Of a DNA stretch of 64,000 nucleotides, positions 1 through 17,198 are shown in pieces (the first letter of the stretch is position 1; every line of letters begins with the position of its first letter). A program made the position numbers and the translations under genes. The DNA is from Acidobacteriota bacterium (lineage in GTDB: Bacteria; Acidobacteriota; Thermoanaerobaculia; Gp7-AA8): positions 64,001 through 128,000 of the forward strand of contig JAFATB010000022.1 of the NCBI GenBank assembly GCA_019244185.1, written 5' to 3'. The notes beneath the pieces were generated by a model. The model searched no databases. It saw only the letters and a program-made list of their open reading frames with translations, and had not been told where the DNA came from.

Positions 1-234
1 CTGGATCGCCTTCGGCAGCAGCGCGTTGAAATTCAGATTGCTGCCGACGTAGACCGGCGTGAACGCGACGACGGTGCCGTCGTCTTCGACGGTCAGATAA
101 CGGACGTGCAGCTCGCCCCACAGCGAGCGTTCCATCGCCCGCAGCAGGCCGAACGAGAAATCGAGTCCGGTCGGCAGCGGCGCGAGCTGCGCGGCCCCGA
201 TCTCGTCGATCGACTCATAGACGTGCGCGCGCAT
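1..234 (-). CDS. 5' part of a putative FemAB-like/GNAT acyl- or aminoacyl-transferase (runs off left edge)
   Basis: Not in the ORF track. Manual translation from ATG at 234 gives MRAHVYESIDEIGAAQLAPLPTGLDFSFGLLRAMERSLWGELHVRYLTVEDDGTVVAFTPVYVGSNLNFNALLPKAIQ, open to base 1, and overlaps the 3' end of the kinase gene. The 'LRAMERS...RYLTVEDDGTVVAFTPVY' pattern resembles GNAT/FemAB-like N-termini. Confidence 0.55.
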   Translation of the reverse strand, partial: MRAHVYESIDEIGAAQLAPLPTGLDFSFGLLRAMERSLWGELHVRYLTVEDDGTVVAFTPVYVGSNLNFNALLPKAIQ

Positions 235-1225
235 GGCTCACGACCTTTCGCTGAAAGGCATCGAACGTGTCGCGGGTGTCGGAGGCGAGATCGCCGGCGA
301 GCGCGCGCACGCGTTGCCGCGCGTCGTCGCTCATGTCGTACGCAAACGGACCGAAGCCGCGCGCGGCCAGGAACGTCGCCGTCGCGCGGAACGTGCGCGG
401 CAGCACCGCATCGACCCACGCCGCGTCGGACACGGCGATGGTCCACGTGTTGACCAATTGCTCGATGAACGATAGCGCGGCGTCGACGAGCGCGGGATTC
501 TGCAGCGCGGGGAGCAGCGCGACGGCGATGAGCGTGCCGAGGTCGAAGGCGGGATCGCCGCAGCAAACGCCTTCGAAGTCGACCAGCGCGACCGGCGCGC
601 CGCGGCGCACGAGGAGGTTCTTGCTCCAGAGGTCCGCGTGGATGAGGCACTCGCGATGCGCTTCCATCTCCGCGCGGATGCCGTCCCATTGCTCGGCGAA
701 CACCTGCCGCGCGCCGGGCGCGAGCAGTCCGTCGAACACGATCCTGCGCACGATCGCTTCCTCCTGCGCGGGACGCGGCGACGCCTTGCCGCGCGTGCAC
801 GCGTGCACCGCGCCGAGGCCGCGGCCGAGCGGTTGCGCGGCCTCGAGGAGCAAATCGAAGTCGTCGCGAATGACGTTGAAGAGCACCGCGCGTCCTTCGC
901 CGACGTCCGTCATCGCCAGCGCGAACTCGTCGCGGTCGACGAACAGCACTTCCGGGATCAGCACCTCGCCTCCCGCGAACGCGCGGAACTGCCACAGTCC
1001 CGCGGCCTCGGAGAACACGCGCTCGCGCGGCAGCTTCACCGGCAGACGCTTCGGCTGCTCCGGAATGACTTTGAGGTACAGGCTGCGCCCGTAGACTTCG
1101 ACGCGATAGACGTAGTTGATGTTCGACAGCGCGCCGTCCTCGGTCACGGAGACCGGCGCGTCGTCGCGCAGCTTCAGACCACGGCGGACGATCGATGCGA
1201 CGTCGGCGACGACGGCGGTGGTCAT
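215..1225 (-). CDS. APH/choline kinase/methylthioribose kinase-like phosphotransferase
   Basis: Start MTTAVV at 1225, ATGA overlap with the upstream stop. Motifs NINYVYRV, LYLK, Brenner motif HADLWSKNLL, metal-binding VDFE, GDPAFDLG. Confidence 0.85.
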   Translation of the reverse strand: MTTAVVADVASIVRRGLKLRDDAPVSVTEDGALSNINYVYRVEVYGRSLYLKVIPEQPKRLPVKLPRERVFSEAAGLWQFRAFAGGEVLIPEVLFVDRDEFALAMTDVGEGRAVLFNVIRDDFDLLLEAAQPLGRGLGAVHACTRGKASPRPAQEEAIVRRIVFDGLLAPGARQVFAEQWDGIRAEMEAHRECLIHADLWSKNLLVRRGAPVALVDFEGVCCGDPAFDLGTLIAVALLPALQNPALVDAALSFIEQLVNTWTIAVSDAAWVDAVLPRTFRATATFLAARGFGPFAYDMSDDARQRVRALAGDLASDTRDTFDAFQRKVVSHARARL

Positions 1226-2184
1226 GGGATGGCCTCCGGCAACCCCATGTACGTGAGGCGGCTGTTCTGCATCTCCGTCGACCACGTATGCGCGGCGATG
1301 AGGCGCTCTTCGGGCGTCGTGTCGATGAGCCGCTTGCCCGGCCAGATCTCGTAGTCGCCGACGACGTCCGCGTGCTGCTCGAGCCCCGCCTGGAAGAAGA
1401 GCTCGCGCTTGATGATCACGTCTTGCGTCGGCAGTGTCGCCCACAGCTGGCGCCCGCGCGTGATGATGTCGAGGACGTGCGGCTTCGCCTCGGGATGCTC
1501 GCGAAGATAGTCGCGCACCGTCGAGCTCCCGACCGTGAGGTGGCGGATCTCGTCGATGTTCGCGCCGCGCTCGATCTGCGCCGCGGGTGGATCGAGCAGC
1601 CGCCACTTGCGCTCCGACAATTCCGCCGCCGGCGCGAGCACGCCTTCGACGAGGATCGTGAGGATCACCACGCCGGCGATGAAGTCACGCTGATCGCGGA
1701 TCAGCGGCAGCGCGAAGGCTTCGAGCGGATGCAGGATCGCGCGCGCGTCGTCGCCGCTGATGCGCCAGATCGTGTCGAACAGCTCCTGCTCCGGCACGCC
1801 GAGCTCGAGGAGATGTCCGCGGAAGACGCGCGAATGCCGCGCCTCGTCGATGAGCTGCGTGCCGAAGAACTCCATCGTGTAGACGTCCGGCGCCGCGGCG
1901 ATGATGTACGTGATCGAGCGCGTCGCGATTTCCTCGGCGATGGACCGGAACGCGAACTCGTTCATGATCGCCTCGCGCAGCGGCCCGGCCTCGAGCATGT
2001 ACGCCGGCACGCGCGCGTTCGGCGCGTGGCCGTGCACCATGCCCGCGAGCGTGCCCTGCGGCACGGCCGTGAACCAGTAGTCGAGATCGCAGTCGCGCGG
2101 CGTGAGCTCGAGGCGGCTCGCGCCTTCGATGAGCGTCGGCGCCTCCGTCCAATCCGCCTCGCGCGGAATCGTGGTGGTCGTCAT
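1222..2184 (-). CDS. vlmB: VlmB-like ferritin/HO-like non-heme diiron oxidase (putative azoxy synthase)
   Basis: Two D-E-x-x-H motifs (TQLIDEARH, NIDEIRH) plus EGVLAPAAELSERKW and YEIWPG...DTTPEER, recognised as VlmB-like family features. Adjacent to vlmO-like and vlmH-like genes. Confidence 0.8.
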   Translation of the reverse strand: MTTTTIPREADWTEAPTLIEGASRLELTPRDCDLDYWFTAVPQGTLAGMVHGHAPNARVPAYMLEAGPLREAIMNEFAFRSIAEEIATRSITYIIAAAPDVYTMEFFGTQLIDEARHSRVFRGHLLELGVPEQELFDTIWRISGDDARAILHPLEAFALPLIRDQRDFIAGVVILTILVEGVLAPAAELSERKWRLLDPPAAQIERGANIDEIRHLTVGSSTVRDYLREHPEAKPHVLDIITRGRQLWATLPTQDVIIKRELFFQAGLEQHADVVGDYEIWPGKRLIDTTPEERLIAAHTWSTEMQNSRLTYMGLPEAIP

Positions 2185-2197: not shown

Positions 2198-2662
2198 TTA
2201 CCAAGTGCCGGCGGCCTGGTAGTCGCGCTCGAAGCGGCGATAAGCCTCGTGCTTCACCGGCTCGAAGGCGGTGCCGAACGGCTTGTAGATGTTCCCGAAG
2301 ACGGAGCGGTCGCCGCAGAGATGGATCGGGAACGCGAGCATCGCCCACTCCAGCCGGCCGCCGATCGCGTACCAGATCGCGCAGAACAGCACCGTCGTGG
2401 CGAAGCTGTGGCCGAAGTTGTAGAGCTGGTGGATCACGGTCGGGATCGAGCGGTGCTCGCCCGAGCAGCGGAAGTAGTAGCAGTACAGACCGGGGAACGT
2501 GCCGAGGACGTCGGGCAGCGCGAACGCCCACGCGAAGTGCCACCAGTTCACCTCGCGCACGTGCAGCAGCAGCACGCCGAAGGCGGTGAACATGAGCACG
2601 GCCCAGTCGATGCGCTCGAGCGTGTAGATCGTCGGCGTGTGAAAGAGATTGTGTTTGTCCAT
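2198..2662 (-). CDS. vlmO: VlmO-like (DUF4260-type) small integral membrane metalloprotein, putative hydrazine (N-N) synthase
   Basis: 154 aa with several hydrophobic helices and the D/H/H/D pattern LPD...YNFGHS...IHLCGDRSVFGNIYKPF. Sits between vlmH-like and vlmB-like genes. Confidence 0.72.
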   Translation of the reverse strand: MDKHNLFHTPTIYTLERIDWAVLMFTAFGVLLLHVREVNWWHFAWAFALPDVLGTFPGLYCYYFRCSGEHRSIPTVIHQLYNFGHSFATTVLFCAIWYAIGGRLEWAMLAFPIHLCGDRSVFGNIYKPFGTAFEPVKHEAYRRFERDYQAAGTW

Positions 2663-2680: not shown

Positions 2681-3808
2681 TTACGCGACTTGCATCGGCT
2701 TGCCCATGAGGTAGCCGTCGATGGCGGAGGCGACGGAGAGGCGCGACGGCGGATGGAACGCGAGCGCGCGCGCGGCGGCGTAGAGATACGAGACGTCGGG
2801 TGTCTTGATGAAGGCCATGCCGCCGAGGAGCTCGGTGGCGCGGACGGTGACCCGCTCGATGGCCTGCTGCACGGCGAAGCGCACCAGCAGCGACTGCACG
2901 AGGATGCCCTCGCCGCGCTCGCCGGTCTGCATCGCGCGCGCGACGCCTTCGAGCGATGTCATCGCGCCTTCGAGATCGATGGCGAGCTGCATCCGCTCGG
3001 CGATGTCGCCGCGTCCGTGCGTGAAGACTTTTTCCGCGAGCGCGGACGCGACGCCGAGGTACGAGGCGGAGACGAGCAGCTCGAACCAGAGGAAGCCGCC
3101 CGCTTCGACCGCGTCGAGACTCTCCTCGACCTCGGGGAAGAAGAGCTGTTCGTCGGCGATCTGCACGTCGGTGAGGCAGAGCTCCTCGCTCTCCGCGCCG
3201 CGAAGCACGGTGCTGCTCCAGAACGGCTTGCGGGTGATGCCTTCCGCGTCCGCGGGCACGACCGCCACCGCGCGGCGGCTGCCGTTGCCGTTGTTGCTCG
3301 GCACCGAGACGCTCGCGGTGAGGATGTGCATCGAGTTCGACAGGCTGCACGGCTTCTTGCTGCCGTTGATGCGATAGCCGCCGCCGTCCTGCGGCGTGGC
3401 CTTCATCAGCGGATCGAGGATGCTCGTGCCGGTGCGGCCTTCCGCGAACCCCGAGGCGACCAGGAGCTGCCCGCCCGCGATCTGCTGGAGCAGCTCCACC
3501 GTGTAGTCGCCGTAGAAGAGGTACTCGACCAGCGTCGCCACCGAGAAGTTGTGCATCGTCATCGCGATGGCGAGCGACGGCGAGCGCGTGGCCACGGCGC
3601 GGTGGATCTGGATGGCCTCCGCGGGCGTGGCGCCTTTGCCTCCGTGCTCGGCCGGCACGAGCAGCCCCGCGCCCTCGAGCTCGCGGAGGATGGTGAGGCC
3701 GGGATTGCCCGGCTTCTCGATCTCCATGAGCGGGATTTCCTGCAGTTTCGCGTCGAGTGTGGGGAGGAACTTTTCGAGCGTCTCCCGATCCCTTTTCAGG
3801 AAGTTCAT
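2681..3808 (-). CDS. vlmH: VlmH-like flavin-dependent alkylamine N-hydroxylase (acyl-CoA dehydrogenase fold)
   Basis: Start MNFLKR at 3808 with GAGGGG RBS. Motifs GLLVPAEHGGKG, SPSLAIAMTMHNF, ASGFAEGRT, INGSKKPCSLS, WFELLVSASY, ELLGGMAFI, LAFHPP closely match isobutylamine N-hydroxylase as recalled. Confidence 0.82.
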   Translation of the reverse strand: MNFLKRDRETLEKFLPTLDAKLQEIPLMEIEKPGNPGLTILRELEGAGLLVPAEHGGKGATPAEAIQIHRAVATRSPSLAIAMTMHNFSVATLVEYLFYGDYTVELLQQIAGGQLLVASGFAEGRTGTSILDPLMKATPQDGGGYRINGSKKPCSLSNSMHILTASVSVPSNNGNGSRRAVAVVPADAEGITRKPFWSSTVLRGAESEELCLTDVQIADEQLFFPEVEESLDAVEAGGFLWFELLVSASYLGVASALAEKVFTHGRGDIAERMQLAIDLEGAMTSLEGVARAMQTGERGEGILVQSLLVRFAVQQAIERVTVRATELLGGMAFIKTPDVSYLYAAARALAFHPPSRLSVASAIDGYLMGKPMQVA

Positions 3809-3849
3809 GACGTACCCCTCGCTGAATTGTTTTTTGCGCGACCGGTTCA

Positions 3850-3922
3850 TTTATAGAGCTGATCCATAAAAAAGTAAAGATCGAAAAATAGCATTGACAA
3901 GTTCCATAAGGACGCCTATAAA
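3850..3922. promoter_or_regulatory. Back-to-back sigma70-like promoters in the AT-rich divergent spacer
   Basis: + strand TTGACA (3894-3899), N17, TATAAA (3917-3922). - strand TTTACT (3878-3873), N17, TATAAA (3855-3850). The spacer is strikingly AT-rich for this high-GC window. Confidence 0.65.
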
Positions 3923-3976
3923 TGCAGACTCGCAATCCGGTCAGCTGCAGACTTCAGGAGAACCCACGGACTCACT

Positions 3977-6900
3977 ATGGCGACGCCTTCGCTGGTTCAT
4001 CTGCTTCAGGAGCGCGCGGACGAGCTTCCCGGCCACCGCTCGTACACCTTTCTCGCCGGCGGTGAAGAATCGGAGAGCCTGACGTTCGCGCGGCTGAACC
4101 GGCGCGCGCGCGCCATCGCCGCGCGGCTGCAGCGCCTCGGCGCGAAAGGGGAGCGCGCGCTGCTGCTCTATCCGGCCGGCACCGAATACATCGCCGCGTT
4201 TTACGGCTGCCTGGCCGCGGGAACCGTCGCGGTGCCCGGCTATCCGCCGCGCATGAACCGCAACCTCAACCGCCTCGAGTCCATCATCAAGGATGCGGAG
4301 GCGCGCTTCGCGCTGACTACCGACGCCGTCTACCGCCAGCTCAGCGAGCGCTTCGACGAGTCACCGAGCCTCAAACGCCTGCAGTGGGTCGTCACCGATC
4401 CGATCGCGGAAGATGAGGCGGACGGCTGGACCGATCCGAACGCGACGCGCGAGACGCTCGCGTTTCTCCAGTACACGTCCGCATCGACCTCCGCGCCGAA
4501 GGGCGTCATGGTCACGCACGGCAACATCCTCCACAACCAGGTCCTGATGAAGGAGGCGGTGCAGCACGACCGCAACACGATCGCCGTCTCCTGGCTGCCG
4601 CTGTTCCACGACATGGGACTGATCAGCATCGTCCTCTCGTCGCTGTACAACGGCATCCCGTGCTATCTCGTCGCGCCGGTCGATTTCCTGAAGAAACCGC
4701 GGCTGTGGCTCGAGGCGATCAGCAAGTACGGCGCGACGTTCAGCGGTGCGCCCGACTTCGGCTACCAGCTCTGCGTCGAGCGCATCAGCGCCGAGGAGCG
4801 CGCGAAGCTCGACCTGTCGAAGTGGCGGGTCGCGTTCAACGGCTCGGAGCCGATCCGCTCGGACACGCTGCGCCTCTTCACCGAGACGTTCGCCGAATGC
4901 GGCTTTCGTCCGACCTCGATGTTCCCGTGCTACGGCCTCGCGGAGAACACGCTCTTCGCGAGCGGCCGCTTTCACGACGGTCCGACGTCGTTCTCGCGCG
5001 CGAGTCTCGAGCGTCATCGTCCCGCGCCGGCGACGGAAGGTCATTTGGCGCAGCTCGTCAGTTGCGGCAAGGCGCTGCTCGACTCCCGCATCGTCATCGC
5101 CGATCCGAAGACGCGCCGACGCTGCGGCGAAGGTGAAGTCGGCGAGATCTGGCTGGCCAGTCCGAGCGTCGCGCAGGGCTACTGGAATCAGCCGCGGCTG
5201 AGCGAGGAAACGTTCCGCGCGCAGACGCTCGACGGCGACGGTCCGTTCCTCCGCACCGCGGACCTCGGCTTCTTCCACGCCGGTGAGCTCTTCATCACCG
5301 GCCGCATCAAGGACCTCATCATCATCCGCGGACGCAACCTCTGCCCGCAGGACATCGAACAGACGGTCGAAGCGTGCGACGCGGCGATCCAGCCGACGTT
5401 CGTGGCCGCGGTCGCGGTCGACGCGGGCACCAGCGAGCGGCTGGTCATCGTCGCGGAAATCCGGCGCGAGGCGCGACGCGAGCTCGATACCGAGGAGATC
5501 GTGCGGAAGATCCGGAACGCGGTAGCGGCGGAGTTCGCGGTGGAAGTGTCCGCGGTCGTGCTGCTGCGTCCGGGACAACTGCCGAAAACGTCGAGCGGCA
5601 AGACGCAGCGCGCGCACGTGAAGCAGCAGTTCCTCGACGGCCAGCTGAAGACGGCCATGATCGCGGAGTGGCGTGACGAGAACGCGTTCCGCGCGAACGA
5701 TCCCGAGCCGCCGCGCGCGCCGAAACACGCGCCGACGCAGGAGCGCATCGAGAGCTGGCTCGTGCAGCGCATCGCCGCGCAGACGAAGATCCCCGCGACG
5801 CGCATCGACCGCACCGCCTCGCTCCTCGTCTACGGACTCGACTCGGTCGTGCTCGTGGCGATCTTCGGCGAGCTCGAAGACGCGTTCCGCGTCACGCTCG
5901 ATCTCGACCGCATCTTCCACGGCGAGCCGTCGCTGCGCGAAGTCGCGCAACGCGTGCACGCCGCGACGCGCGCGACGGCGGCGACGGCAGATGTTCCCGC
6001 GCCTGCGCCTGTTGCCGCGCCCGCGCGTCCGCAGCCGGTGCCCACCGAAGCGCCGCCCGCGCAACCGGCATCCGTGCTGCCGATCGCGAAGCCGAAGAAG
6101 CTCACGCTCGGCAACACCGACGCGACGGCCGCGTCTCCGACGCCGAAGCCGGTGCTCGCCGCGGTGCCCGACACCAGACACGAAGAACGCGCGCCGAAGC
6201 CGAAGCATCCCTTCCGCACGCACGTCAATCCCGAGCTCGGGCGCGTGCTCGAGCAGATGGCCATGGACAAGTCGTTCGTGCGCGGCGAGGGGAGCTGGCT
6301 TTGGGATGAAGCGGGGCGCCGCTACCTCGATTTCCTCGCGCAGTACGGCGCGCTACCGTTCGGCTTCAATCCGCCGCGTATCTGGTCGGCGCTGAACGCC
6401 GTGCGCGCGACCGCGGAGCCGAGCTTCGTGCAGCCGTCGTATCTCAACGCCGCGGGCGAGCTCGCGAAACGACTGCTCGCCGTCGCGCCTCCGGGCATGG
6501 CGTACGTGACGTACGCGAACAGCGGCGCGGAAGCGATCGAGGCGGCGATCAAGCTCTGTCGCTCGACGACGAAGCGCCACGACATCCTCGCCGCGGGCAA
6601 CGGCTTCCACGGCAAGACGCTCGGCGCGCTCTCCGCGACGGACAAGGAGAAATACCAGAAAGGCTTCGGCGCGCCGGTACCCGGCTTCCACTACGTCCCG
6701 TACGGCGACGCGGACGCGCTGCGGCGCGCGCTCGCCGGCGGCCGCTACGCCGCGTTCCTCGTCGAGCCGATCCAGGGCGAGGGCGGCATCGTTGAGCCGC
6801 CGGCGGGTTACCTCCGGCTCGCGCGCAAGCTGTGCCGCGAGGCGGGCACGCTCTTCGTCGCCGACGAGATCCAGACGGGACTCGGCCGCACTGGCGCGAT

Positions 6901-8839
6901 GTTCGTCTGCCGCGAGCTCGGCATCACGCCCGACGTGATGACCGTCGCGAAAGCGCTCGGCGGCGGTCTCGTTCCGATCGGCGCGTGCCTCGCCACCGCG
7001 GCCGCGTACAACGAAGACTTCGCGCTGAAGCACACGTCGACGTTCGCGGGGAACACGCTCGCATGCCGCGCCGGCATCGCGACGCTCGATCTGTTGGAAG
7101 CCGACAGCGGCGCGCTCGTCGCGCAGGTGAAAGCGAACGGCGCACGATTGAAGGACGCGCTGCTCGCGCTCGCCGATCGCTATCCCGGTCTCATCGCGGA
7201 AGTCCGCGGACGTGGCTACTTCCTCGGCCTGCGCCTCGGGCTCGACCGTCATTCCGTCGACGACGGTCTCCTCGGCTACCTCGGCGAACAGGAAGCGCTG
7301 ACCGCGATCGTCGTCAGCCATCTGCTGCACGTCGAAGGCGTGCGCGTCGGCTTCACGCTCAATCACGGCGGCGTGCTGCGCATCGAGCCGCCGCTCACGG
7401 CGACGTGGGAGGAGTGCCAGTTCTTCCTCGCCGCGCTCGAGCGCGTGCTCGTGCGCATCGACCGCCGCAACCTCGCCGCGCTGACCTCGCAGGTGACGGG
7501 CTTCCGTCCTGCCGTCGCGGCGGAAGTCGTGAGACCCCGCGTGACGGAGCTCCCGCGAAAAGCGCGGCTCGACGTGCGCGCCGGCGATGGACGCTTCGCG
7601 TTCCTCGTCCATCCGCTGGCGTGGAAGGACTACGGCGACATCGACGAGAGCCTCGCGCCGCTCTCCGGCGAACAGCTGGCGAAACTCTCCGGCGCGCTGG
7701 CCGACAACTTCGATCCGATGGTCGTCGGCGAGACGCGTATCACCGCCGAGAACGGCAAGACCGCGTACGGCGAGTTCATTCTCGTGCCGCGCCGCGCCGA
7801 GGAGCTGCGCGCGCTGCCGCCCGAACAGGCGGTGAGCGAGATCCGCGAAGCCGTGCGCGTGGCGCAGAAGCGCGGCGCGAAGATCGTCGGCCTCGGCGCG
7901 TACACCTCCGTCGTCACGCAGGGCGGCCTCTCACTGGTCGGTGAAGGCCTGCCCGCGATCACCACTGGAAACTCCTACACCGTCATTGCCGCGCGGCAAA
8001 CGATCCGTCTCGCGTCGGCTGATCGAGGCTGGCAGCTCCCGCGACGAACCGTCGCGGTCCTGGGCGCCGGCGGCTCGATCGGGCAGGCGCTGTCCGTCCT
8101 CCTTGCGCGCGACACCGGCCGTTTGCTGCTGATCGGGAACCCCGCACATCCCGACGAAAGCCGTGAGCGTCTGCTGCAGGTCGCGGGACGGATCGTTTGC
8201 TCGCTCGATCAATTGAAAGGATTCGCGCCCGGTTCGGTCGCCAGCTGGGTTGCAGAGCTGGCGATCGAGGCGCCGCAGAAGCCGGATCGCGCGACGTTGA
8301 TTCGCCTGGGCGAGGAGTTCATCGCGCGCACGGGCGCCGTGGAGCTCGGCGTCGACGCCGCGCAGTTCCTGCCGCGCGCGGACGTCGTGGTCTGCTGCAC
8401 GAGCACGACCGAGCGCATGGTCACCGAAGAAACGCTGCGGCGCGAAGCGATCGTGTGCGACGTCTCGCGGCCGTCGAACGTCGGCGCGCACGTGCGCGCG
8501 CGGCGCCCGGACGTCCTCGTGCTCGACGGCGGCGTGGTGCGGTTGCCCGGCAGCTCGCAACTCGGCTTCAACGCCGGCATCGGCAAAACGAACGCGTACG
8601 CCTGCATGGCGGAAACGATGATGCTCGCGCTCGAACAGCGCTATCGCGACGCGAGCCTCGGATTCGATCTTTCGCTCGACAACGTGCTGGAGATGGAACG
8701 GCTCGCGGAAGCAACGGGCTTCCGCGTGGTCTCACGGAAACAGGCCCCCGAAGCATTGACAGTGATGCGACTCCTTAGTCGGGAGGAGAACGAGGCGCAA
8801 GTCCTCGAGGGGGCTCCACCGCTTTCCGCGACGTCGTGA
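3977..8839 (+). CDS. Fatty acyl-AMP ligase - ACP - class III aminotransferase - acyl-ACP reductase-like fusion (putative fatty amine synthase)
   Basis: FAAL: AFLQYTSASTSAPKGV, SWLPLFHDMGLI, PCYGLAE, GRIKDLIIIRGRN, LPKTSSGK. ACP: GLDSV. Aminotransferase: NSGAEAIEAA, FHGKT, EPIQGEGG, DEIQTGLGRTG, VAKALGGG. Reductase: FAFLVHP, GLGAYTSVV, TTGNSYT, GAGGSIG, YACMAETM. Confidence 0.85.
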   Translation: MATPSLVHLLQERADELPGHRSYTFLAGGEESESLTFARLNRRARAIAARLQRLGAKGERALLLYPAGTEYIAAFYGCLAAGTVAVPGYPPRMNRNLNRLESIIKDAEARFALTTDAVYRQLSERFDESPSLKRLQWVVTDPIAEDEADGWTDPNATRETLAFLQYTSASTSAPKGVMVTHGNILHNQVLMKEAVQHDRNTIAVSWLPLFHDMGLISIVLSSLYNGIPCYLVAPVDFLKKPRLWLEAISKYGATFSGAPDFGYQLCVERISAEERAKLDLSKWRVAFNGSEPIRSDTLRLFTETFAECGFRPTSMFPCYGLAENTLFASGRFHDGPTSFSRASLERHRPAPATEGHLAQLVSCGKALLDSRIVIADPKTRRRCGEGEVGEIWLASPSVAQGYWNQPRLSEETFRAQTLDGDGPFLRTADLGFFHAGELFITGRIKDLIIIRGRNLCPQDIEQTVEACDAAIQPTFVAAVAVDAGTSERLVIVAEIRREARRELDTEEIVRKIRNAVAAEFAVEVSAVVLLRPGQLPKTSSGKTQRAHVKQQFLDGQLKTAMIAEWRDENAFRANDPEPPRAPKHAPTQERIESWLVQRIAAQTKIPATRIDRTASLLVYGLDSVVLVAIFGELEDAFRVTLDLDRIFHGEPSLREVAQRVHAATRATAATADVPAPAPVAAPARPQPVPTEAPPAQPASVLPIAKPKKLTLGNTDATAASPTPKPVLAAVPDTRHEERAPKPKHPFRTHVNPELGRVLEQMAMDKSFVRGEGSWLWDEAGRRYLDFLAQYGALPFGFNPPRIWSALNAVRATAEPSFVQPSYLNAAGELAKRLLAVAPPGMAYVTYANSGAEAIEAAIKLCRSTTKRHDILAAGNGFHGKTLGALSATDKEKYQKGFGAPVPGFHYVPYGDADALRRALAGGRYAAFLVEPIQGEGGIVEPPAGYLRLARKLCREAGTLFVADEIQTGLGRTGAMFVCRELGITPDVMTVAKALGGGLVPIGACLATAAAYNEDFALKHTSTFAGNTLACRAGIATLDLLEADSGALVAQVKANGARLKDALLALADRYPGLIAEVRGRGYFLGLRLGLDRHSVDDGLLGYLGEQEALTAIVVSHLLHVEGVRVGFTLNHGGVLRIEPPLTATWEECQFFLAALERVLVRIDRRNLAALTSQVTGFRPAVAAEVVRPRVTELPRKARLDVRAGDGRFAFLVHPLAWKDYGDIDESLAPLSGEQLAKLSGALADNFDPMVVGETRITAENGKTAYGEFILVPRRAEELRALPPEQAVSEIREAVRVAQKRGAKIVGLGAYTSVVTQGGLSLVGEGLPAITTGNSYTVIAARQTIRLASADRGWQLPRRTVAVLGAGGSIGQALSVLLARDTGRLLLIGNPAHPDESRERLLQVAGRIVCSLDQLKGFAPGSVASWVAELAIEAPQKPDRATLIRLGEEFIARTGAVELGVDAAQFLPRADVVVCCTSTTERMVTEETLRREAIVCDVSRPSNVGAHVRARRPDVLVLDGGVVRLPGSSQLGFNAGIGKTNAYACMAETMMLALEQRYRDASLGFDLSLDNVLEMERLAEATGFRVVSRKQAPEALTVMRLLSREENEAQVLEGAPPLSATS

Positions 8840-10452
8840 GCGCGCTCGGCGAGCTCGCCGCATGGGCGCACGGGCTGCGTCTCGACGACGTGCCGCCGTT
8901 CGTGCGCGCGCGTGCCGTCGACCAACTGCTCTCGACGCTCGGCGCGATGTACGCCGGCGCCGCGAGCGAGCTCGGTCCGAAGCTCGACCTCTTGTTCGCG
9001 GACGTTGCGCCGGAGACGACGCGCGAGGCCATGCGCATGGCCTCGTGGTCGATGGTGCTCGACTACGACGACGTCATGCTCGGCGGTCACACGAGCCATT
9101 CAGCGGTCGTCGTGCCGCTCGCGTTCGCGGACGGGCATTCCGGCGCGGAGCTGCTGCTCGCGCAGATCGTTGCGAACGAGATCGCCGCGCGCGTGAACAT
9201 GGTCTGCGCCGTCGGCTCGACGCGCGGGCAGATGGCGACGCACCTTCATCTCCTCGCCGCCGCCGCCGCGCGTGCGAAGCTCGAAGGTCTCGATGCCGCG
9301 ACGTTCGCGGATGCGCTGTCGTTCGCGCTCGCGTATCCCGCGCAGGCGCTCTATCCCGCGTTTCTCGGCAGCGACGCGAAGGCGCTCTGCGCCGCGCTGC
9401 CAGTCCGCGCCGGCATCGAAGCGGTCGACGCGGTGCGCGCGGGACTGCGCGCGCCGGGTGAGGTACTCGACGGCCCGCGCGGCTTCTTCGCGACGCATGC
9501 GCGCGTGCCGGTGCGCGATTTTCTCGGCGGACTCGGCACGCGCTGGCACACCGCGACGAACAGCTTCAAGATCTACCCCGTCTGCGGCTATCTCTGCTCC
9601 GCGGTCGACGCGACGCTCGACCTCGTGCGCACGTATGACGTCGACGCGGACGACGTCGCGTCCGTCGACGTGCACGCGTCGCTCTTCACGGTCGGCATGG
9701 ACGCGCATTCCGTTCCCTACATTGACGGCCCGCGCTCACCGATCGCGGCGCTCACGTTCTCGACGCCGTTCGTGATCGCGTCTGCGATCCGCGCGCGTGC
9801 ATTCACGCCGGCGCAGCTCGAACGCGCGTGGATCGAAGACGAGCGCGTGTGGCAGCTCGCCGCGCGCGTACAAACGCGCCACGATCCGCGCCTCACGCGC
9901 GACGCGCTCACCGCGGACATCCCGATCGGCGCCGCGCTACGCCGCGTGAAGAAGTGGCAGGCCGGGGGATTCGCGTGGAGCATTGCCGCGACGGCATTCG
10001 GCCGCGCGGGGCGTCTGCGCCGTCCGGTCGAAACGCTGCGTCTCATCGCGGGACTCACCGCTGCGGCAGGCGATCGCGCGCCGATGGAGTTCGAGCGCGC
10101 GACGAAGCCGATGGGCGCGCGCGTCGCGATGCGTCTGCGCGACGGCCGCACGCTCGAACGCGAGGTGTCGATCCCGCGCGGCTTCGCGGGCGGCATTGAT
10201 GACATCCGCACGCTGATGATTCACAAGTTCCTCGCCGCCGCCGCGCCGGAGCTCGGCAGCGCGCGGGCCGCCACCGCCGCCGTCGCGCTCGAACACTACG
10301 AGTCGCTCTCGCCCGACGGCGTCGCGCGCCTCGTCGACGTGCTCGCGCGCGAGACGCCGCCGTTCACCCGCGCATCAGCCGCGGCGGCAGCATCCACTCC
10401 AGCGATGCGTGGCGGCCGCTCCAGCGAAGGCCGTAGCAGCCGCCTTTCTTGA
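8836..10452 (+). CDS. MmgE/PrpD family protein (VlmK-like lyase/dehydratase candidate)
   Basis: GTGA overlap with the upstream fusion gene. Motifs LDYDDVMLGGHTS, ANEIAARV, LDGPRGF, FKIYPVCGY, FSTPFVIA. The 3' end overlaps sixA on the opposite strand. Confidence 0.8.
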   Translation: MSALGELAAWAHGLRLDDVPPFVRARAVDQLLSTLGAMYAGAASELGPKLDLLFADVAPETTREAMRMASWSMVLDYDDVMLGGHTSHSAVVVPLAFADGHSGAELLLAQIVANEIAARVNMVCAVGSTRGQMATHLHLLAAAAARAKLEGLDAATFADALSFALAYPAQALYPAFLGSDAKALCAALPVRAGIEAVDAVRAGLRAPGEVLDGPRGFFATHARVPVRDFLGGLGTRWHTATNSFKIYPVCGYLCSAVDATLDLVRTYDVDADDVASVDVHASLFTVGMDAHSVPYIDGPRSPIAALTFSTPFVIASAIRARAFTPAQLERAWIEDERVWQLAARVQTRHDPRLTRDALTADIPIGAALRRVKKWQAGGFAWSIAATAFGRAGRLRRPVETLRLIAGLTAAAGDRAPMEFERATKPMGARVAMRLRDGRTLEREVSIPRGFAGGIDDIRTLMIHKFLAAAAPELGSARAATAAVALEHYESLSPDGVARLVDVLARETPPFTRASAAAAASTPAMRGGRSSEGRSSRLS

Positions 10453-10840
10453 GATCGACGTCGCCGCTCATGCCCGTGAGCGAAAGCATGAACGCGGAGA
10501 GCGTCGGCTCGTGGCCGACAAAGTACGCGGCCGGTTCCTTGACGTCGTGCAGGAACTCACGGAACGCATCGGGATCGCTGCCCGGCACGAGCGCATCCGT
10601 GATGTAAAACGCGAGCTTGCCGCCGTATGCCTCCGCCACCCACGCCCCCGTCTCCCGCGCGCGCACCAGCGGGCTGCTGTAGATCGCCTCGGCCTCGGGG
10701 ACGAGGCGCGCGAGCGTCTTCGCGATCTCCTGCATCTTGGCGTTGCCTTCCGCCGTGAGACGGCGTTCGGCATCGGCCTTGTGGCCTTTGTCTTCGGCGA
10801 TGCCGTGGCGGAGGAGGATGAGCAGTCCGTCGCGTTTCAT
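10364..10840 (-). CDS. sixA: Phosphohistidine phosphatase SixA (histidine phosphatase family)
   Basis: C-terminal part of track ORF 10364..13069. Start MKRDGLLILLRHGIAED with ATGA overlap. Motifs RHG, RRLTAEG, SSPLVRARET, VGHEP, LKKGG. Confidence 0.85.
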   Translation of the reverse strand: MKRDGLLILLRHGIAEDKGHKADAERRLTAEGNAKMQEIAKTLARLVPEAEAIYSSPLVRARETGAWVAEAYGGKLAFYITDALVPGSDPDAFREFLHDVKEPAAYFVGHEPTLSAFMLSLTGMSGDVDLKKGGCYGLRWSGRHASLEWMLPPRLMRG

Positions 10841-13800
10841 GACGTCTTGATCGTCTCGTCGGCCGCGGTGATGAGGCCGCAGAGCGTCATGTCCTTCGCG
10901 TACGCGGCGATCTGGTCGACCGCGTACAGGCCGAGGCGGCGGTAGCTCTCGAACTGCGACTCGCTGAAGAACTGATCGCCGGTGGTCTCGTGCGGGAACG
11001 TCGGCGAATTCATGGCGTAGTTCAGCACATCGCGCGGTCCTTTCTTGTAGACCACCGGCTTGATGTAGAGCAGGCGGCCGTTCTCCGCGTCCTCGCCGTC
11101 GACCGCTTTGTAGTTGATGGTGCCGACCGCGCAGTATTTCTCCGGCGTCCGCTTCTTCTTGTCGGGCGGGATGATGCCGATGTCGTCGATGTCGATCGGC
11201 ACGCCGAGGTCGATGCGGATCTTGCGCAGCGCGTTGCCGAGATCGTCGTAGATGTACTTCGGATCGGCGCCCGCGTCGGTGACGACGATGCAGTGGCAGC
11301 GGCGCAGCACCATCTCGTAGATGCCGAGGTTCTCGAAGTGACCGCCGTCGGAGAGGTAGACGTAGCCGTACGTGTCGTCGGAGTTGCCCGTCGCCTCGCG
11401 CAGGAACGGGATGATCGACGAGCGCGGGTTCCGGCGGCGATACGTTTCGAGCGGTCCGTTGCCGGCCAGACCGGGATTGCCGAGCCACCAGCCGAGGCGG
11501 ACGTTGAAGAGCGTCATGAGGAACGCGAGCGCCGGCGACGAGTGGTAGCCCATGTTCGGGCTCGCGGCCGCGCCGGAGATCGTGACCGCGGTGCCGAGCG
11601 AGATCTCGCCGTAGTCGCGCGTGTCGCGGTAGCCGAGGTTGCGGTTGCCCGAGGCGAGCGGCGACACGGTCATCGATTCGGCCTTGCGTTCCTGCCACGC
11701 GAGGTCGGCGCCACTGGTGAGATTGAGCGTGACGTTGATGACGTGCATCGGGCGCGCGTTCGCGAGCGGCTTGAGCGTCCCCGGGAACTTCGCCTCGATG
11801 CGCAGGCGGTTGTCGAGCATGCGATGCACGCCGTCGATCGTGCTCCACGTGAACGGCCGCGCGTCGACGGTGAGGCCGCTGAACGCGGGATCGGTGGCCA
11901 GCGTTTTCGTGGCGATGATCTCGTTCACTTCGCCGAGGAGCGTGAGGCCCGCCTGCGCGAGGAACTGCGCGGCGGGGACGAGGAGATCGTCGGCGCAGAG
12001 CAGCGGCATCGGCGACGGATAGAGGGCGTCGTCGAACGCTTTCTCGATGAAGCGGCGGTTGCGCAGCGGGCGCTGCGCGCGATCGGCGGCGGGCGTTTTC
12101 GGATCGAACTCGCGCGGCAGATCGCGCGTGGCGATGAGCGCATTCAGCGATTGCGAGACAGCGCGCGCCCGCGCCTCGGTCGTCGCCGGCACGTCGGCCA
12201 GCTGCTCTTTCTTCGCCGCCCAGAGAAACGCGAGACGCGTTCCGGCCGCCGCGTTTTTCAGCGCGAGGTACGCGCCGTCGGCGTCGCGGAAGCTGTACAC
12301 CCAGATGTACTCCGGACGGAGGTCGTGCATCTCGAGGTTGTCGTCGGCGTCGAAGCCGGTGAAGGCGTTCGGACGCCGGCTCCAGCGCGAGGCGCCGAGG
12401 TACGCGCGCACGAGGCGGTTGCGATACATCGCGTGCATCGAGAAGACGTTCACGCCGATGAAGCGCGAGATCAGCAGCGCGACCGATGGCAGCCCGAGCA
12501 CGAGCAGCAGCAGCGCCCACGGATCGCTGTTCTGCACGAGGCGGAGGTGTTCGAGCGAGCGGACGCGCGGCACGTTCGCAACCGGCTTCTCGACGATCTT
12601 GGCGGGCAGCTTCGCGACGTTCGCGATGTACGTGCGCGACGCGGCGTCGGCGCGGCGCACGTCGGCCGAGATCGCGCTCGCGTCGACCGGCTTGAATTCC
12701 GGAAACGTTTTCTGCAGCGCCCACGTGGTGCCGGTGGAGATGAGCGCCAGGATCCAGAGGACGAACAGCGGCACGGCGATGGCGAGGCCGAGATTCATCG
12801 CCGTCGACGACGCGGACGCGTCCTCTTTCGACTGGCCGGCGTTCGTCTTCGAGCTGCGGCCGGCGAGGAGCGAGAAGAGGCCCGCGCCGCCGCCCGCGGC
12901 GGAGAGGAGCTTCGGCAGGTGATGGATCGCGACCGGGCCGTAGATCGCGACCGCGCAGAGCACGGCCCAGCCGATGCCGCCGATGAGCACCCAACCGCAC
13001 GCGCGCGCCCACCACTCGCGATCGAAATCGTGGTTCTGCTGGCTGGCGATGCCGACGAAGAGCGCGCATTGGAGAAACAGCACGCAGATGACGAGCGGCA
13101 CGGCGAAGCAGACGTACATCGCCGTCGCGGCGCTGAGCGTGCCAGCGTCGTTGATCGGCCAGCGCACGGCGTCGACGAGCTTCGTCGGCGCGAGCGGATC
13201 ATCGAAGAGGCGCGTGAGCCGCCAGCCGAGGAGGCCGCCGAGCGCGCCCGCGGCGAGCGCCGCGGCAAGCTCGAGGGAGAGCCGGAGCAGCCTGGGCCGC
13301 TTGGGGGTGATCGAATCGCGGCGCGCGGCGACGGCCACACTGAAGTAGCGCGCGAAGAAGACGCCCCACGCGACGAGACAGAGCGCGACGCTGGCGACGA
13401 AGAACCAGCGCGGGCCGAGCTGCCTGCCGGGATTGGCGGCGAGATACCACGCCCACGCGAGCATCAGCGCGAACGTGCCGGCGAGGAACGGCGCGAGGCA
13501 GCGCAGGATGAAGCTGCCGTCCGTCAGCGCGCTCTTCTTCTCCGACGCCGTATCGGCGATCGGCCGTTTCCCCACCTGATACAGCAGCGCCTCGGCGAGC
13601 AGCAGCATGCCCAGGATCGTGACGAACTTCGTGCTCGACACGCCGCCGACGTCCACCGCCGGATGCCTCACCGCGGCGACGACGAGGCGCGGGATCGCGA
13701 GCACGCCGGCGAGCAGCGGGATCAGCACGATCCAGTTCAGCAGCAGGTTGCGCAGATACGTGGCGACGAGCGCCCACGTGTCGGCGGAGAGGATGCCGAG

Positions 13801-14595
13801 CTTCGGCGTGAGGTAGTTGCTGTACGCGCGCAGGTGGCGCAGCGGCAGCGGCTCGGGTTGGAGGCGATCGGCCGGCGCGGCCGTGAGCATCGCCGAGATG
13901 CCGCGGATGCCCCACGGATCGCGGCGCATCCACGACGAGAGCCAGCTGCCGATGTAGCCGCCGCCGGAGACGGTGGAGACGAAGTCGAACTGTTCGAGAA
14001 GGCCGCGTTTCGCGAGCCCCTGCATCACGCCGAGCGCGAACGTTGCGCTGCGGATGCCGCCGCCGGAGATCGACAGCGCGGTGCGCAGTTTCTTCTCCTC
14101 CCGCGCGCGTTTGTGGATGCGCGCGACGACGGTGGCGTAATGCGCGTCGGCGGCCGAGCGCGTGGCGCCGTCGAACAGCAGATCGAACATCTGCCGGTTG
14201 ACGTTGTAAACCTCGTGCGCGTCGTAGTCGCCCGCGTCGCCGGTGCCGTCGTACGGCGCCTTCTTCGCCGAGGCGAAGGCGGGGTGTTCGAAGAGCCAGC
14301 GGCGCGTCTTGCCGTCCTCCGGCGCGAGCGTGTCGAGGATCGCGTTCACCTCCTCGGCGACCGACTTGCGGTCCTTCGGATCGTAGCCTTTGAGGTTGCG
14401 CCAGTTCGCGAAGACGGGCGGGACGTCCTGCTTCGCGTCGAGGAAGCGTTCGGAGAGCCGGCGTGCGAGGTCGCGCGCGTCGGCGACGTCGTCCATCGTC
14501 AGCGTCCAGCGCGACGGCAGCGGATCGGCGGGACCGTAGAGGCGCACGTACTCCTCGTGCAGGATGTCGCCGAGCGACATCGGAAGCGAAGCCAT
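10837..14595 (-). CDS. Large membrane-embedded patatin/cPLA2-like phospholipase
   Basis: Oxyanion motif ISGGGIRSA, nucleophile STVSGG, catalytic LSDGGHFENLG, a multi-helix hydrophobic central region, and C-terminal FPHETTGDQFFSESQFESYR. Confidence 0.8.
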   Translation of the reverse strand: MASLPMSLGDILHEEYVRLYGPADPLPSRWTLTMDDVADARDLARRLSERFLDAKQDVPPVFANWRNLKGYDPKDRKSVAEEVNAILDTLAPEDGKTRRWLFEHPAFASAKKAPYDGTGDAGDYDAHEVYNVNRQMFDLLFDGATRSAADAHYATVVARIHKRAREEKKLRTALSISGGGIRSATFALGVMQGLAKRGLLEQFDFVSTVSGGGYIGSWLSSWMRRDPWGIRGISAMLTAAPADRLQPEPLPLRHLRAYSNYLTPKLGILSADTWALVATYLRNLLLNWIVLIPLLAGVLAIPRLVVAAVRHPAVDVGGVSSTKFVTILGMLLLAEALLYQVGKRPIADTASEKKSALTDGSFILRCLAPFLAGTFALMLAWAWYLAANPGRQLGPRWFFVASVALCLVAWGVFFARYFSVAVAARRDSITPKRPRLLRLSLELAAALAAGALGGLLGWRLTRLFDDPLAPTKLVDAVRWPINDAGTLSAATAMYVCFAVPLVICVLFLQCALFVGIASQQNHDFDREWWARACGWVLIGGIGWAVLCAVAIYGPVAIHHLPKLLSAAGGGAGLFSLLAGRSSKTNAGQSKEDASASSTAMNLGLAIAVPLFVLWILALISTGTTWALQKTFPEFKPVDASAISADVRRADAASRTYIANVAKLPAKIVEKPVANVPRVRSLEHLRLVQNSDPWALLLLVLGLPSVALLISRFIGVNVFSMHAMYRNRLVRAYLGASRWSRRPNAFTGFDADDNLEMHDLRPEYIWVYSFRDADGAYLALKNAAAGTRLAFLWAAKKEQLADVPATTEARARAVSQSLNALIATRDLPREFDPKTPAADRAQRPLRNRRFIEKAFDDALYPSPMPLLCADDLLVPAAQFLAQAGLTLLGEVNEIIATKTLATDPAFSGLTVDARPFTWSTIDGVHRMLDNRLRIEAKFPGTLKPLANARPMHVINVTLNLTSGADLAWQERKAESMTVSPLASGNRNLGYRDTRDYGEISLGTAVTISGAAASPNMGYHSSPALAFLMTLFNVRLGWWLGNPGLAGNGPLETYRRRNPRSSIIPFLREATGNSDDTYGYVYLSDGGHFENLGIYEMVLRRCHCIVVTDAGADPKYIYDDLGNALRKIRIDLGVPIDIDDIGIIPPDKKKRTPEKYCAVGTINYKAVDGEDAENGRLLYIKPVVYKKGPRDVLNYAMNSPTFPHETTGDQFFSESQFESYRRLGLYAVDQIAAYAKDMTLCGLITAADETIKTS

Positions 14596-17193: not shown

Positions 17194-17198
17194 CGCGT

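Follow-up and report, generated by a model that had tools for sequence, protein, structure and literature searches.

A predicted single-chain fatty acid-to-fatty amine synthase in a putative azoxy-type gene cassette of an Acidobacteriota bacterium

A single open reading frame (ORF) in the 64,000-nt stretch of Acidobacteriota DNA analyzed here (the window) encodes four domains in one chain of 1620 aa and is likely to be a self-contained synthase for the conversion of free fatty acids to primary fatty amines, in which a TamA-like FAAL-ACP part is fused to a TamH-like transaminase-reductase part. As judged from sequence, fold and gene neighborhood, the amine would feed a VlmH-like N-hydroxylase and the surrounding cassette would turn it into an N-N lipid; the most likely role of the ORF would be fatty amine supply for N-hydroxylation and N-N bond formation. 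For the cluster as a whole, a long-chain azoxy (N=N-O) lipid is the probable product, made in a bacterium of soil type. The features of the locus are the following (window coordinates):

1..234, minus strand: start of the gene for the FemAB-like/GNAT transferase P0123, 379 aa, which continues upstream of the window (L083:9095-10234, minus strand)
215..1225, minus strand: APH-family kinase, 336 aa (PF01636, 8.6e-15)
1222..2184, minus strand: VlmB-like diiron oxygenase P0122, 320 aa, ExxH motifs at 114 and 212
2198..2662, minus strand: VlmO-like small membrane protein P0121, 154 aa (37% over 153 aa, E 1e-30)
2681..3850, minus strand: predicted VlmH-like ACAD-fold flavin-dependent N-hydroxylase, 389 aa (44% over 383 aa, E 8e-102)
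3851..3976, no strand: AT-rich intergenic region between the divergent genes, with TTGACA-N17-TATAAA oriented toward the four-domain ORF, read from the sequence
3977..8839, plus strand: four-domain ORF P0001, 1620 aa, FAAL-ACP-linker-class III aminotransferase-AAR-like reductase
3977..5674, plus strand: FAAL domain, residues 1-566, P-loop YTSASTSAPKG at 166-176, A10 motif PKTSSGK at 536-542
5756..5956, plus strand: ACP, residues 594-660, phosphopantetheine Ser623 in GLDS (PF00550, 1.4e-10)
5966..6256, plus strand: Pro/Ala-rich linker, residues 664-760, recognized by composition
6275..7450, plus strand: class III (omega) aminotransferase domain, residues 767-1158, PLP Lys992 (PF00202, 1.9e-85)
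7592..8725, plus strand: AAR-like thioester reductase domain, approximately residues 1206-1583, GxxGxxG at 1363-1369, Cys1543
8836..10452, plus strand: VlmK-like MmgE/PrpD protein, 538 aa (PF03972, PF19305)

The frame of the four-domain ORF is unbroken from the ATG at 3977, which is the earliest start codon downstream of the preceding in-frame stop, to the stop codon ending at 8839, and the promoter-like sequence in the divergent intergenic region is a candidate promoter for it. Pfam profiles recognized AMP-binding (PF00501, residues 11-403, 8.9e-66), AMP-dom_DIP2-like (residues 446-559), PP-binding and Aminotran_3 domains in the protein and neither a KS nor a C domain, while the linker consists of 21% Pro and 20% Ala as compared to 6% and 13.5% in the whole chain. 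These results are in accordance with the original prediction, which had described four domains in one ORF with a Pro/Ala-rich linker after the ACP and without KS or C domains; the motifs that it had listed, GLDS (620-623), VAKALGGG (990-997), GAGGSIG (1363-1369) and YACMAE (1541-1546), were each found at their place.

The N-terminal domain aligned end to end (residues 6-566, including 330-365) with the PDB FAAL chain 7r7g (1.5e-156), followed by the FAALs 3kxw, FadD32 and FadD23, and almost all of the top 15 PDB matches were FAALs, the closest being those of PKS loading modules. The fused PP-binding domain with its GLDS motif is the predicted acceptor of the acyl group activated by this domain, and its Ser623 is kept in 64/64 four-domain homologues, as are the PLP-binding Lys992 of the aminotransferase domain and Cys1543 of the reductase domain. 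For the predicted model of the transaminase-reductase part (886 aa), the best Foldseek matches were the PigE transaminase (4ppm, 6.5e-37) and YgjG (4uox); since the top 50 comprised transaminases only, with no reductase match, the reductase domain was folded and searched alone.

By sequence, the C-terminal 458 aa matched the reductase (N-terminal) portion of the PigE model (1.5e-39), the TIGR04058 acyl-ACP reductase model (1.5e-22) and the PDB chains of PigE (4ppm, 3.8e-23) and AAR (6jzq, 1.7e-16), and in the PDB alignment Cys1543 lines up with the cysteine of both AAR and PigE (YACMAE as compared to FACFAE). The AlphaFold model of this domain had a pLDDT of 89.9. A Foldseek comparison with AAR had been proposed as a check along with the original prediction, and cyanobacterial AAR chains indeed occupied all of ranks 1-7 (E 4e-22 to 4e-18), with target-normalized TM scores of 0.78-0.82 and Foldseek identities of 21-23%. 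The curated NCBIfam cut-offs were missed throughout: the PigE equivalog NF053554 scored 516.5 bits against a cut-off of 850, the AAR equivalog TIGR04058 80.3 bits against 449.7, and the FAAL models, despite E values of 1e-111 to 1e-130 on the N-terminal domain, all fell below theirs (e.g., PRK05850, 436 bits against 775). The protein is therefore to be regarded as a relative of each of the named families and not as a member.

Following this, we propose that the FAAL domain would adenylate a free fatty acid and load it onto the Ser623-bound phosphopantetheine of its own ACP, which, on its long Pro/Ala-rich tether, would hand the acyl group over to Cys1543 of the AAR-like domain, where reduction of the thioester by NAD(P)H would release a fatty aldehyde. 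The class III aminotransferase, with PLP on Lys992 and an amino acid as donor, would then convert the aldehyde to the primary amine, on which the VlmH-like N-hydroxylase encoded by the divergent gene would presumably act. The other members of the cassette, i.e., the FemAB-like transferase, the VlmO-like and VlmB-like proteins and the kinase with the VlmK-like lyase, might carry the amine on to an N-N lipid (first a hydrazine, then an azoxy compound) whose head group would be a dehydrated amino acid.

The four-domain architecture is not confined to the window. An architecture search, also proposed beforehand, showed that 64 of the best 120 database matches, the protein of the window counted, are proteins of 1500-1850 aa with PF00501, PF00550 and PF00202; most of them derive from metagenomes, the few that carry a taxon name belong to Acidobacteriota, and the proteins are only 40-90% identical. 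Moreover, all four domains are contiguous and in one frame in five genome loci. Because of these two observations the fusion can be regarded as genuine and not as an assembly artefact. A FastTree phylogeny built from the last 880 residues of each of the 120 listed proteins, calculated with no outgroup, placed 56 of the 64 four-domain proteins together with one ACP-AT-AAR protein of 1032 aa (split support 0.978), and the other eight among shorter forms; a single fusion event is therefore not borne out by this tree. A phylum-wide search returned mostly paralogous aminotransferases, and among the sampled genomes a full-length transaminase-reductase match was present in G000 only, the match in G124 being cut by the contig end.

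The neighboring genes resemble those of a Streptomyces valanimycin-type locus, which was recognized from its annotation and is distinct from the vlm cluster as published. The matches of the VlmH-like and VlmO-like genes are an ACAD-family gene in the VlmH position and a gene in the VlmO position of this locus, the VlmK-like gene is 40% identical over 454 aa (E 3e-74) to its MmgE/PrpD gene, and the order H-O-B in the window is that of the Streptomyces locus. tblastn with the VlmB-like protein found matches in 13/13 plasmid records, all from Streptomyces, with 49-53% identity and annotated as 'VlmB-like protein'. It was via this search, followed by pairwise BLASTP, that the VlmO link was made, as a word-indexed search with the 154-aa membrane protein returned close relatives only and no Streptomyces VlmO. 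Residues D51, H85, H114 and D118 of the VlmO-like protein, counterparts of the published essential residues D51, H82, H110 and D114 of VlmO, are kept in 115-117 of 118 homologues. Start and stop codons overlap inside both operons: the kinase ATG overlaps the VlmB-like stop codon (ATGA), and the VlmK-like start (8836) overlaps the stop of the four-domain ORF (8839).

Conservation of this cassette was seen in related loci. The VlmH-, VlmO- and VlmB-like genes as well as the FemAB-like gene accompany the fusion in all five related genome loci; the kinase and VlmK-like genes are present beside it in four of the five. The identity of the VlmH-like protein is 81-85% in L001, L002, L036 and L048 and 60% in L003, that of the FemAB-like protein 74-81% in four loci and 50% in L003, and that of the VlmK-like protein 57-66% in four loci; the kinase is 56-61% identical in L001, L002, L036 and L048 and was not found in L003. 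Also conserved in the cluster are genes for an ICMT-type methyltransferase, for a DinB_2 protein and for a protein in which a thioester-reductase domain is joined to an alpha/beta hydrolase. In the database, the longest source contigs of 15 four-domain and 15 VlmO-like matches are identical in length, which hints indirectly at a shared contig. The patatin-like gene at 10837-14595 and the A-T-TE gene at 14653-17895 were rejected as cluster members since neither accompanies the cassette in the five related loci.

At the level of the enzyme, the proposed function has to be weighed against two other readings. The FAAL domain could be inactive through its TSAST P-loop, so that the ACP would be loaded in trans and the protein would not be self-contained. 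The glycines of the canonical TSGSTGxPKG are indeed replaced (YTSASTSAPKG), as the original prediction had remarked in noting TSAST rather than the usual TSGST; the variant is real but not an oddity, as it occurs in at least 52 of the 64 four-domain homologues. TSAST is the conserved state of the clade and therefore gives no hint of inactivity. Furthermore, the adenylation motifs FHDMGL, YGLAE, GRxKD (here GRIKD) and PKTSSGK are conserved in the four-domain homologues, with the final Lys of the A10 motif kept in 64/64, and a dead domain would not hold its motifs under selection across proteins of 40-90% identity, which makes an inactive FAAL very improbable. Even less credence is given to the reading in which the C-terminal domain acts like the TAD of carmabin, so that the acyl chain would leave as a primary amide, with the aminotransferase supplying the nitrogen or having another role. 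TAD chains are the second-best structural matches of the predicted model (E approximately 1e-15), ahead of generic dehydrogenases (6e-6 or higher), and TAD and AAR have the fold, the catalytic Cys and the NAD site in common. However, AAR matches better than TAD, with TM scores of 0.78-0.82 as compared to 0.63-0.68 and identities of 21-23% as compared to 15-16%; the sequence is nearest to PigE and the architecture nearest to TamH, both tied to aldehyde formation, TAD activity itself has not been reconstituted, and an amide product would leave the fused omega-transaminase without evident use.

With conversion of fatty acid to primary amine as the preferred function of the ORF, the fate of the product is to be considered. 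Tentatively, we propose that the fused synthase may be the entry module of a pathway to long-chain alkyl-azoxy (valanimycin-like) lipids that belongs to an undescribed family, one that would be widespread among uncultured Acidobacteriota and the first of its kind outside Actinobacteria, and in which the FemAB-like protein would stand in for VlmA as aminoacyl donor transferase and the APH-type kinase for VlmJ, and the product may be carboxyl-methylated by the membrane ICMT-type enzyme. The azoxy route is less secure than the amine-forming step because the cluster holds no VlmA-family gene (PF09924, DUF2156; profile matches in the genome only on contigs C2 and C5) and no flavin reductase gene (VlmR, PF01613; sole genome match on contig C14), and because, by BLASTP, the DUF2156 gene found in the Streptomyces locus and the FemAB-like protein showed no similarity. 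The latter protein matched PF04339 (4.7e-10) and PF13480 (3.3e-07) and had neither a PDB match by sequence nor an NCBIfam match; its role as a VlmA substitute therefore rests only on family and position. The absence of VlmA-family and flavin reductase genes would also fit a fatty amine, or only an aldehyde, made for a non-azoxy product such as a hydroxamate, nitrone or hydrazine lipid derived from an N-hydroxy-alkylamine, or an N-acyl amine, the Vlm-like neighbors then performing a related but different N-oxidation. The kinase, which belongs to the APH family and not to the VlmJ family PF19279 named in PMC9379638, points the same way, as do the thioester-reductase/hydrolase fusion, the ICMT-type methyltransferase and the DinB_2 protein, which are without counterpart in the Streptomyces locus. 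Nevertheless, we consider a non-azoxy product unlikely: both VlmO and VlmB, reported as the pair behind N-N bond and azoxy group formation, have homologues here, the counterparts of the essential VlmO residues are conserved, and the VlmK homologue and the kinase form an operon pair around the core.

If the amine synthase and its cassette act as proposed, several consequences follow. A single chain leading from free fatty acids to primary fatty amines would make a compact biocatalyst; ATP, NAD(P)H, PLP, an amino donor and a phosphopantetheinyl transferase are all that it is predicted to need. It would also lend itself well to studying how a single tethered ACP can serve two domains that are arranged non-colinearly. 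In Acidobacteriota, whose natural products are, to our knowledge, almost unexplored, the fixed association with VlmH/O/B homologues might serve as a simple marker for finding N-N lipid clusters in genomes. Moreover, the cluster points to a transferase unrelated to VlmA, tRNA-dependent or other, in azoxy-type chemistry.

In comparison to known systems, stand-alone AAR (6jzq, 6jzu, 6jzy, 6jzz) has the fold (TM approximately 0.8 to target), the Cys and the nucleotide-binding motif in common with the C-terminal domain of the ORF product. Its aldehyde goes to a deformylating oxygenase and not to a transaminase, and its identity to the domain is 21-23%. Carboxylic acid reductases (A-PCP-R) likewise use ATP and NAD(P)H to convert acids to aldehydes on a carrier domain, and in engineered cascades an omega-transaminase follows; their reductase, however, belongs to the SDR type and is not known to form a covalent Cys intermediate, and the experimenter supplies the transaminase as a separate enzyme. 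The carmabin TAD (PDB 9e4s) resembles the domain studied here in that its fold derives from AAR and its Cys lies next to NAD and is fed by a carrier protein, but it ends NRPS modules and an amide is its proposed product (bioRxiv 10.1101/2024.10.28.620694).

The Streptomyces azoxy clusters (valanimycin vlm, azodyrecin ady/azd, KA57-A and elaiomycin) contain VlmH/O/B/K-like genes as the window does (PMC9379638; bioRxiv 10.1101/2023.10.13.562208; PMC11705231). Compared with them, the locus lacks VlmA, VlmJ and VlmR, with the FemAB-like protein at the place of VlmA, the APH-family kinase at that of VlmJ and no replacement for VlmR. Amine supply differs as well: a decarboxylase provides it for valanimycin, and a separate reductase and a separate transaminase are proposed for azodyrecin-type pathways (Ady2/Ady4, AzdP/AzdQ), whereas a fused synthase is predicted here, and an AAR-like domain was found in 0/13 of the Streptomyces plasmids with a VlmB-like gene (E 1e-10 or better). 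For the azodyrecin pathway, knock-outs led to the proposal that a VlmH homologue N-hydroxylates a fatty amine. The putative nocuolin A (noc) cluster of Nostocales follows the same logic in unfused form, with FAAL and ACP, acyl-ACP reductase, aminotransferase and N-monooxygenase encoded by adjacent separate genes with predicted roles; the cluster is proposed to make an N-N-O lipid, a 1,2,3-oxadiazine (PMC5333925).

Closest in sequence is PigE of the prodigiosin MAP branch (PDB 4ppm; NF053554), the best-scoring match for both the reductase and the transaminase domain, which reduces a thioester and transaminates the aldehyde, and in which an AAR-like reductase, with Cys296 equivalent to AAR Cys294, is fused to a class III transaminase (PMC8341465). 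In contrast to the ORF, PigE has the reversed domain order (reductase N-terminal), is without adenylation or carrier domain and acts on a different substrate. The same four domains in the same order are found in PtTamA and PtTamH of the tambjamine YP1 pathway of Pseudoalteromonas tunicata, including an AAR-like reductase with GxxGxxG and a catalytic Cys. According to the published description (PMC9594044), the two proteins convert C12 acid, ATP, NADH and L-Glu to C12 amine in vitro, an aldehyde appears when the amino donor is omitted, the reductase requires acyl-ACP and not acyl-CoA, and the series of steps comprises adenylation, ACP loading, Cys-dependent reduction to the aldehyde and transamination to the primary amine. 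On the basis of this description, the difference is that PtTamA and PtTamH are two proteins in a bipyrrole pathway, whereas the window encodes one 1620-aa chain with a Pro/Ala-rich tether in an azoxy-type cassette; the protein of the window is a natural head-to-tail fusion of TamA-like and TamH-like proteins. The initial proposal of a primary alkylamine synthase feeding a VlmH-like hydroxylase is thus supported by domain assignments from profile, sequence and predicted fold, by the TamA/TamH precedent and by the 44% identical VlmH-like neighbor, whereas its domain logic and acid-to-amine chemistry were already known from TamA/TamH and PigE. Since TamA and TamH already demonstrate the reaction, what is gained is not new chemistry but the single-polypeptide architecture, its distribution and its genomic context.

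A single open frame on the forward strand, running from the ATG at 3977 to the stop at 8839, encodes a protein of 1620 aa in which Pfam detected the following domains and neither a ketosynthase nor a condensation domain:

residues 11-403, AMP-binding
residues 446-559, AMP-binding C-terminal subdomain
residues 594-660, PP-binding
residues 767-1158, Aminotran_3

The linker between the ACP and the transaminase consists of 21% Pro and 20% Ala, and residues 6-566 align with the solved FAAL chain 7r7g (1.5e-156), the next PDB matches being other FAALs. The C-terminal 458 residues gave weak Rossmann matches in Pfam, whereas NCBIfam gave hits to PigE, within the N-terminal reductase portion of that model (1.5e-39), and to TIGR04058 for cyanobacterial acyl-ACP reductase (1.5e-22), and the sequences of solved structures gave PigE 4ppm (3.8e-23) and AAR 6jzq (1.7e-16); the Cys of YACMAE aligns with that of FACFAE in AAR and of GCMAE in PigE. 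The original prediction had described four domains on one ORF lacking KS and C domains, a Pro/Ala-rich stretch after the ACP and five motifs (TSAST, GLDS, VAKALGGG, GAGGSIG and YACMAE), all of which were found in place, so that this observation is confirmed in full.

Two structural models were built, each from a homologue alignment of 52 rows. The model of the transaminase-reductase half (pLDDT 89.8, pTM 0.86) had the transaminases PigE and YgjG as its best Foldseek matches. For the reductase domain alone (pLDDT 89.9, pTM 0.89), the seven top-ranked matches were without exception AAR chains (E 4e-22 to 4e-18, 21-23% identity, TM 0.78-0.82 normalised to the target), so that the proposed AAR-like nature of the C-terminal domain stands; carmabin's putative terminal amidation domain came next (about 1e-15, TM 0.63-0.68), with ordinary dehydrogenases appearing only at 6e-6 or worse.

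A homologue search with the reductase domain as the sole query scored 7993 candidates, 262 of which reached an E-value of at most 0.001. Of the best 120 of these 262, 64 (the window's own protein included) were 1500-1850 aa long with PF00501, PF00550 and PF00202, while the shorter forms comprised TamH-like transaminase-reductase proteins of about 900 aa and proteins of about 1000 aa, some with an ACP; in three others, about 1400 aa long, an adenylation domain was found but no PP-binding match. When aligned, the four-domain proteins all (64/64) retained four residues, namely the ACP Ser, PLP Lys, reductase Cys and last Lys of the A10 motif, and the nucleotide motif fitted GxxGxxG in all 63 variants shown. 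Judged by these homologues, the fusion is real and its catalytic residues are under selection. The P-loop had been flagged as unusual: TSAST is indeed present, but as a departure from the usual TSGST it is the rule within the clade, being carried by at least 52 of the 64 proteins as compared to at least six with TSGST (lower bounds, since six variants fell outside the display), and it is thus best read as a clade mark and not as damage.

In a FastTree phylogeny of the C-terminal 880 residues of these best 120 proteins, one split with a support of 0.978 brought together 56 of the 64 four-domain proteins and one ACP-AT-AAR protein of 1032 aa, the other eight grouping among the shorter forms; the window protein lies within the large, stable four-domain group. 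Because the tree has no outgroup, it accommodates one fusion with later losses and several independent fusions equally. Fusions of an AAR-like domain with a transaminase were also present on 27 plasmid records (Paraburkholderia, Leisingera, Ralstonia and others), none of them from Streptomyces. On one of them, a Leisingera thetidis plasmid (L098, 7600-11787), a protein of 1395 aa annotated only as class III aminotransferase carries the AAR-like domain in mid-chain and adjoins an MMPL transporter, an aminodeoxychorismate synthase gene and an adenylate-forming enzyme; by its sequence, it arranges the reductase-transaminase module in a third way. A Pyrinomonadaceae contig (L030, 10001-19240) encodes a FAAL and, some 5 kb further downstream, a transaminase-AAR-like protein on its own gene, with 27-33% identity to the window domains; this layout resembles that of TamA/TamH, without fusion, and lies within the same phylum.

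The gene downstream of the four-domain ORF starts in overlap with its stop codon. On the other side, an AT-rich gap of 126 bp with TTGACA-N17-TATAAA separates the ORF from a divergent operon; the view was widened with DNA upstream of the window (locus L083), and the genes are, in operon order:

2681-3850, minus strand, ACAD-fold protein
2198-2662, minus strand, membrane protein of 154 aa
1222-2184, minus strand, protein of 320 aa with two ExxH motifs
ATG at 1225 overlapping the stop codon of the 320-aa gene, minus strand, APH-family kinase
start at 234 and running past the left window edge, minus strand, FemAB-like/GNAT protein (P0123)
upstream of the window, minus strand, thioester-reductase domain fused to an alpha/beta hydrolase
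near the operon, plus strand, ICMT-type methyltransferase and DinB_2 protein

The 320-aa protein matched 13 of 13 plasmid records in tblastn, all from Streptomyces, at 49-53% identity and annotated as 'VlmB-like protein'. One of these loci carries the full valanimycin gene set as recognised by annotation: diacylglycerol-kinase-family, MmgE/PrpD, serine--tRNA ligase, DUF2156, ACAD-family, small hypothetical protein, flavin reductase, VlmB-like protein and PLP decarboxylase genes. Pairwise BLASTP against this locus aligned the ACAD-fold protein in the VlmH position (44% over 383 aa, 8e-102), the membrane protein in the VlmO position (37% over 153 aa, 1e-30) and the MmgE/PrpD protein in the VlmK position (40% over 454 aa, 3e-74). 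In the membrane protein, D51, H85, H114 and D118 are shared by 115-117 of 118 homologues; for VlmO, a review names D51, H82, H110 and D114 as iron ligands that are essential (PMC11705231). According to the azoxy-pathway papers, VlmH/VlmR N-hydroxylate the amine, VlmA contributes an aminoacyl group taken from tRNA, the hydrazine is formed by VlmO and the azoxy group by VlmB, and phosphorylation and dehydration of the serine part fall to VlmJ and VlmK. The VlmA family (PF09924) and the flavin reductase family are absent from the cluster and occur in the own genome only on contigs C2 and C5 and on contig C14, respectively. The FemAB-like protein showed no BLASTP similarity to the DUF2156 gene of the Streptomyces locus, no sequence relative in the PDB and no NCBIfam match, and the APH-family kinase differs in family from VlmJ.

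Three genes about 0.9-4.2 kb upstream of the window start (L083:5844-9095) are kept beside the cassette in related loci, namely the thioester-reductase-alpha/beta hydrolase fusion (677 aa), an ICMT/PEMT-type membrane methyltransferase (213 aa) and the DinB_2 protein (205 aa). They may serve in head-group tailoring, for which a methyl ester as in azodyrecin, made via an unrelated methyltransferase family, is one possibility. Further upstream, an ABC1/UbiB-type kinase (L083:2736-4793, minus strand) is 58-65% identical in the related loci L002, L036 and L048, and a FAD-dependent monooxygenase (L083:1104-2675, plus strand) was matched only in L001 (72%).

Among 79 loci kept from representative genomes, the four domains were contiguous in five (two Pyrinomonadaceae and three Thermoanaerobaculia; 52-70% identity). 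All five carry VlmH-, VlmO- and VlmB-like as well as FemAB-like genes, and four also the kinase and the VlmK-like gene, which were not found in L003. For 15 four-domain and 15 VlmO-like hits the longest contigs are of identical length, which indirectly suggests that they share contigs. In 301 sampled genomes of the phylum, the own genome and five of the same family included, a full-length transaminase-reductase match was found only in the own genome; in G124 the match was broken by a contig end, and the remaining genomes had aminotransferase paralogues only (G152, G024 and G049, flagged as unpublished, were counted in this tally only). The four-domain gene is sporadic.

A very large patatin-like ORF (1252 aa, Patatin match only at residues 174-226) and an adjoining single-module A-T-TE protein (1080-aa ORF, adenylation from residue 250) at 10837-17895 on the minus strand were considered as cassette members and rejected: the five related loci carry the cassette without either of them, so that the two appear to form a small pathway of their own. 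The A-T-TE gene adjoins a predicted uptake system (17199-22090, minus strand) of ABC permease, ABC ATPase, NMT1/THI5-like binding-protein region and TonB-dependent receptor. The window also encodes two large Sortilin/Vps10-type BNR-repeat proteins (23436-26345, plus strand; 33352-36744, minus strand) and a hybrid sensor kinase in which a PAS domain, an HATPase domain and two receiver stretches were matched (29298-32654, plus strand). At a G+C content of about 68%, very long spurious ORFs lie opposite or off-frame to real genes (e.g., 18738-26135 and 4361-6223, both minus strand), and because their translations even appear 'conserved' against related loci in tblastn, neither the length of an ORF nor similarity in another frame is a reliable guide in this DNA.

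Following homology, we propose that the FAAL domain would adenylate a free fatty acid and load it on Ser623 of its own tethered ACP, from which the acyl chain would move to the reductase-domain residue Cys1543; the thioester would be reduced to the aldehyde by NAD(P)H and the transaminase, with PLP on Lys992, would form the primary amine, to be N-hydroxylated by the VlmH-like enzyme before the remaining cassette enzymes build and tailor an N-N lipid. The four-domain protein probably performs the amine-forming step. An azoxy end product is less well supported because PF09924, flavin reductase, the FemAB-like protein and the kinase misfit the azoxy template, and it is favoured here only slightly.

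The amine-forming reaction is already known from TamA/TamH, whose domains recur in the same order in the window protein but on one chain, and the predicted fatty acid to fatty amine assembly line is supported. In that system, PtTamA (adenylation-ACP) and PtTamH, whose class III transaminase is joined to an AAR-like reductase (GxxGxxG, Cys887), turn C12 acid into C12 amine, for which ATP, NADH and L-Glu are required; leaving out the amino donor reveals the aldehyde, and acyl-CoA does not serve as a substrate (PMC9594044). PigE is described as having both activities in reversed order (PMC8341465), the putative nocuolin A cluster as having FAAL/ACP, acyl-ACP reductase, aminotransferase and N-monooxygenase on adjoining separate genes (PMC5333925), and the fatty amine of azodyrecin has been proposed to arise by two distinct proteins, one a reductase and the other a transaminase. 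The open-access literature searched, these papers among it, yielded no account of all four domains on one chain. New, as variations on known systems, are the joining of the domains in a single protein, the distribution of this form among uncultured Acidobacteriota and its link with a variant azoxy-type cassette.
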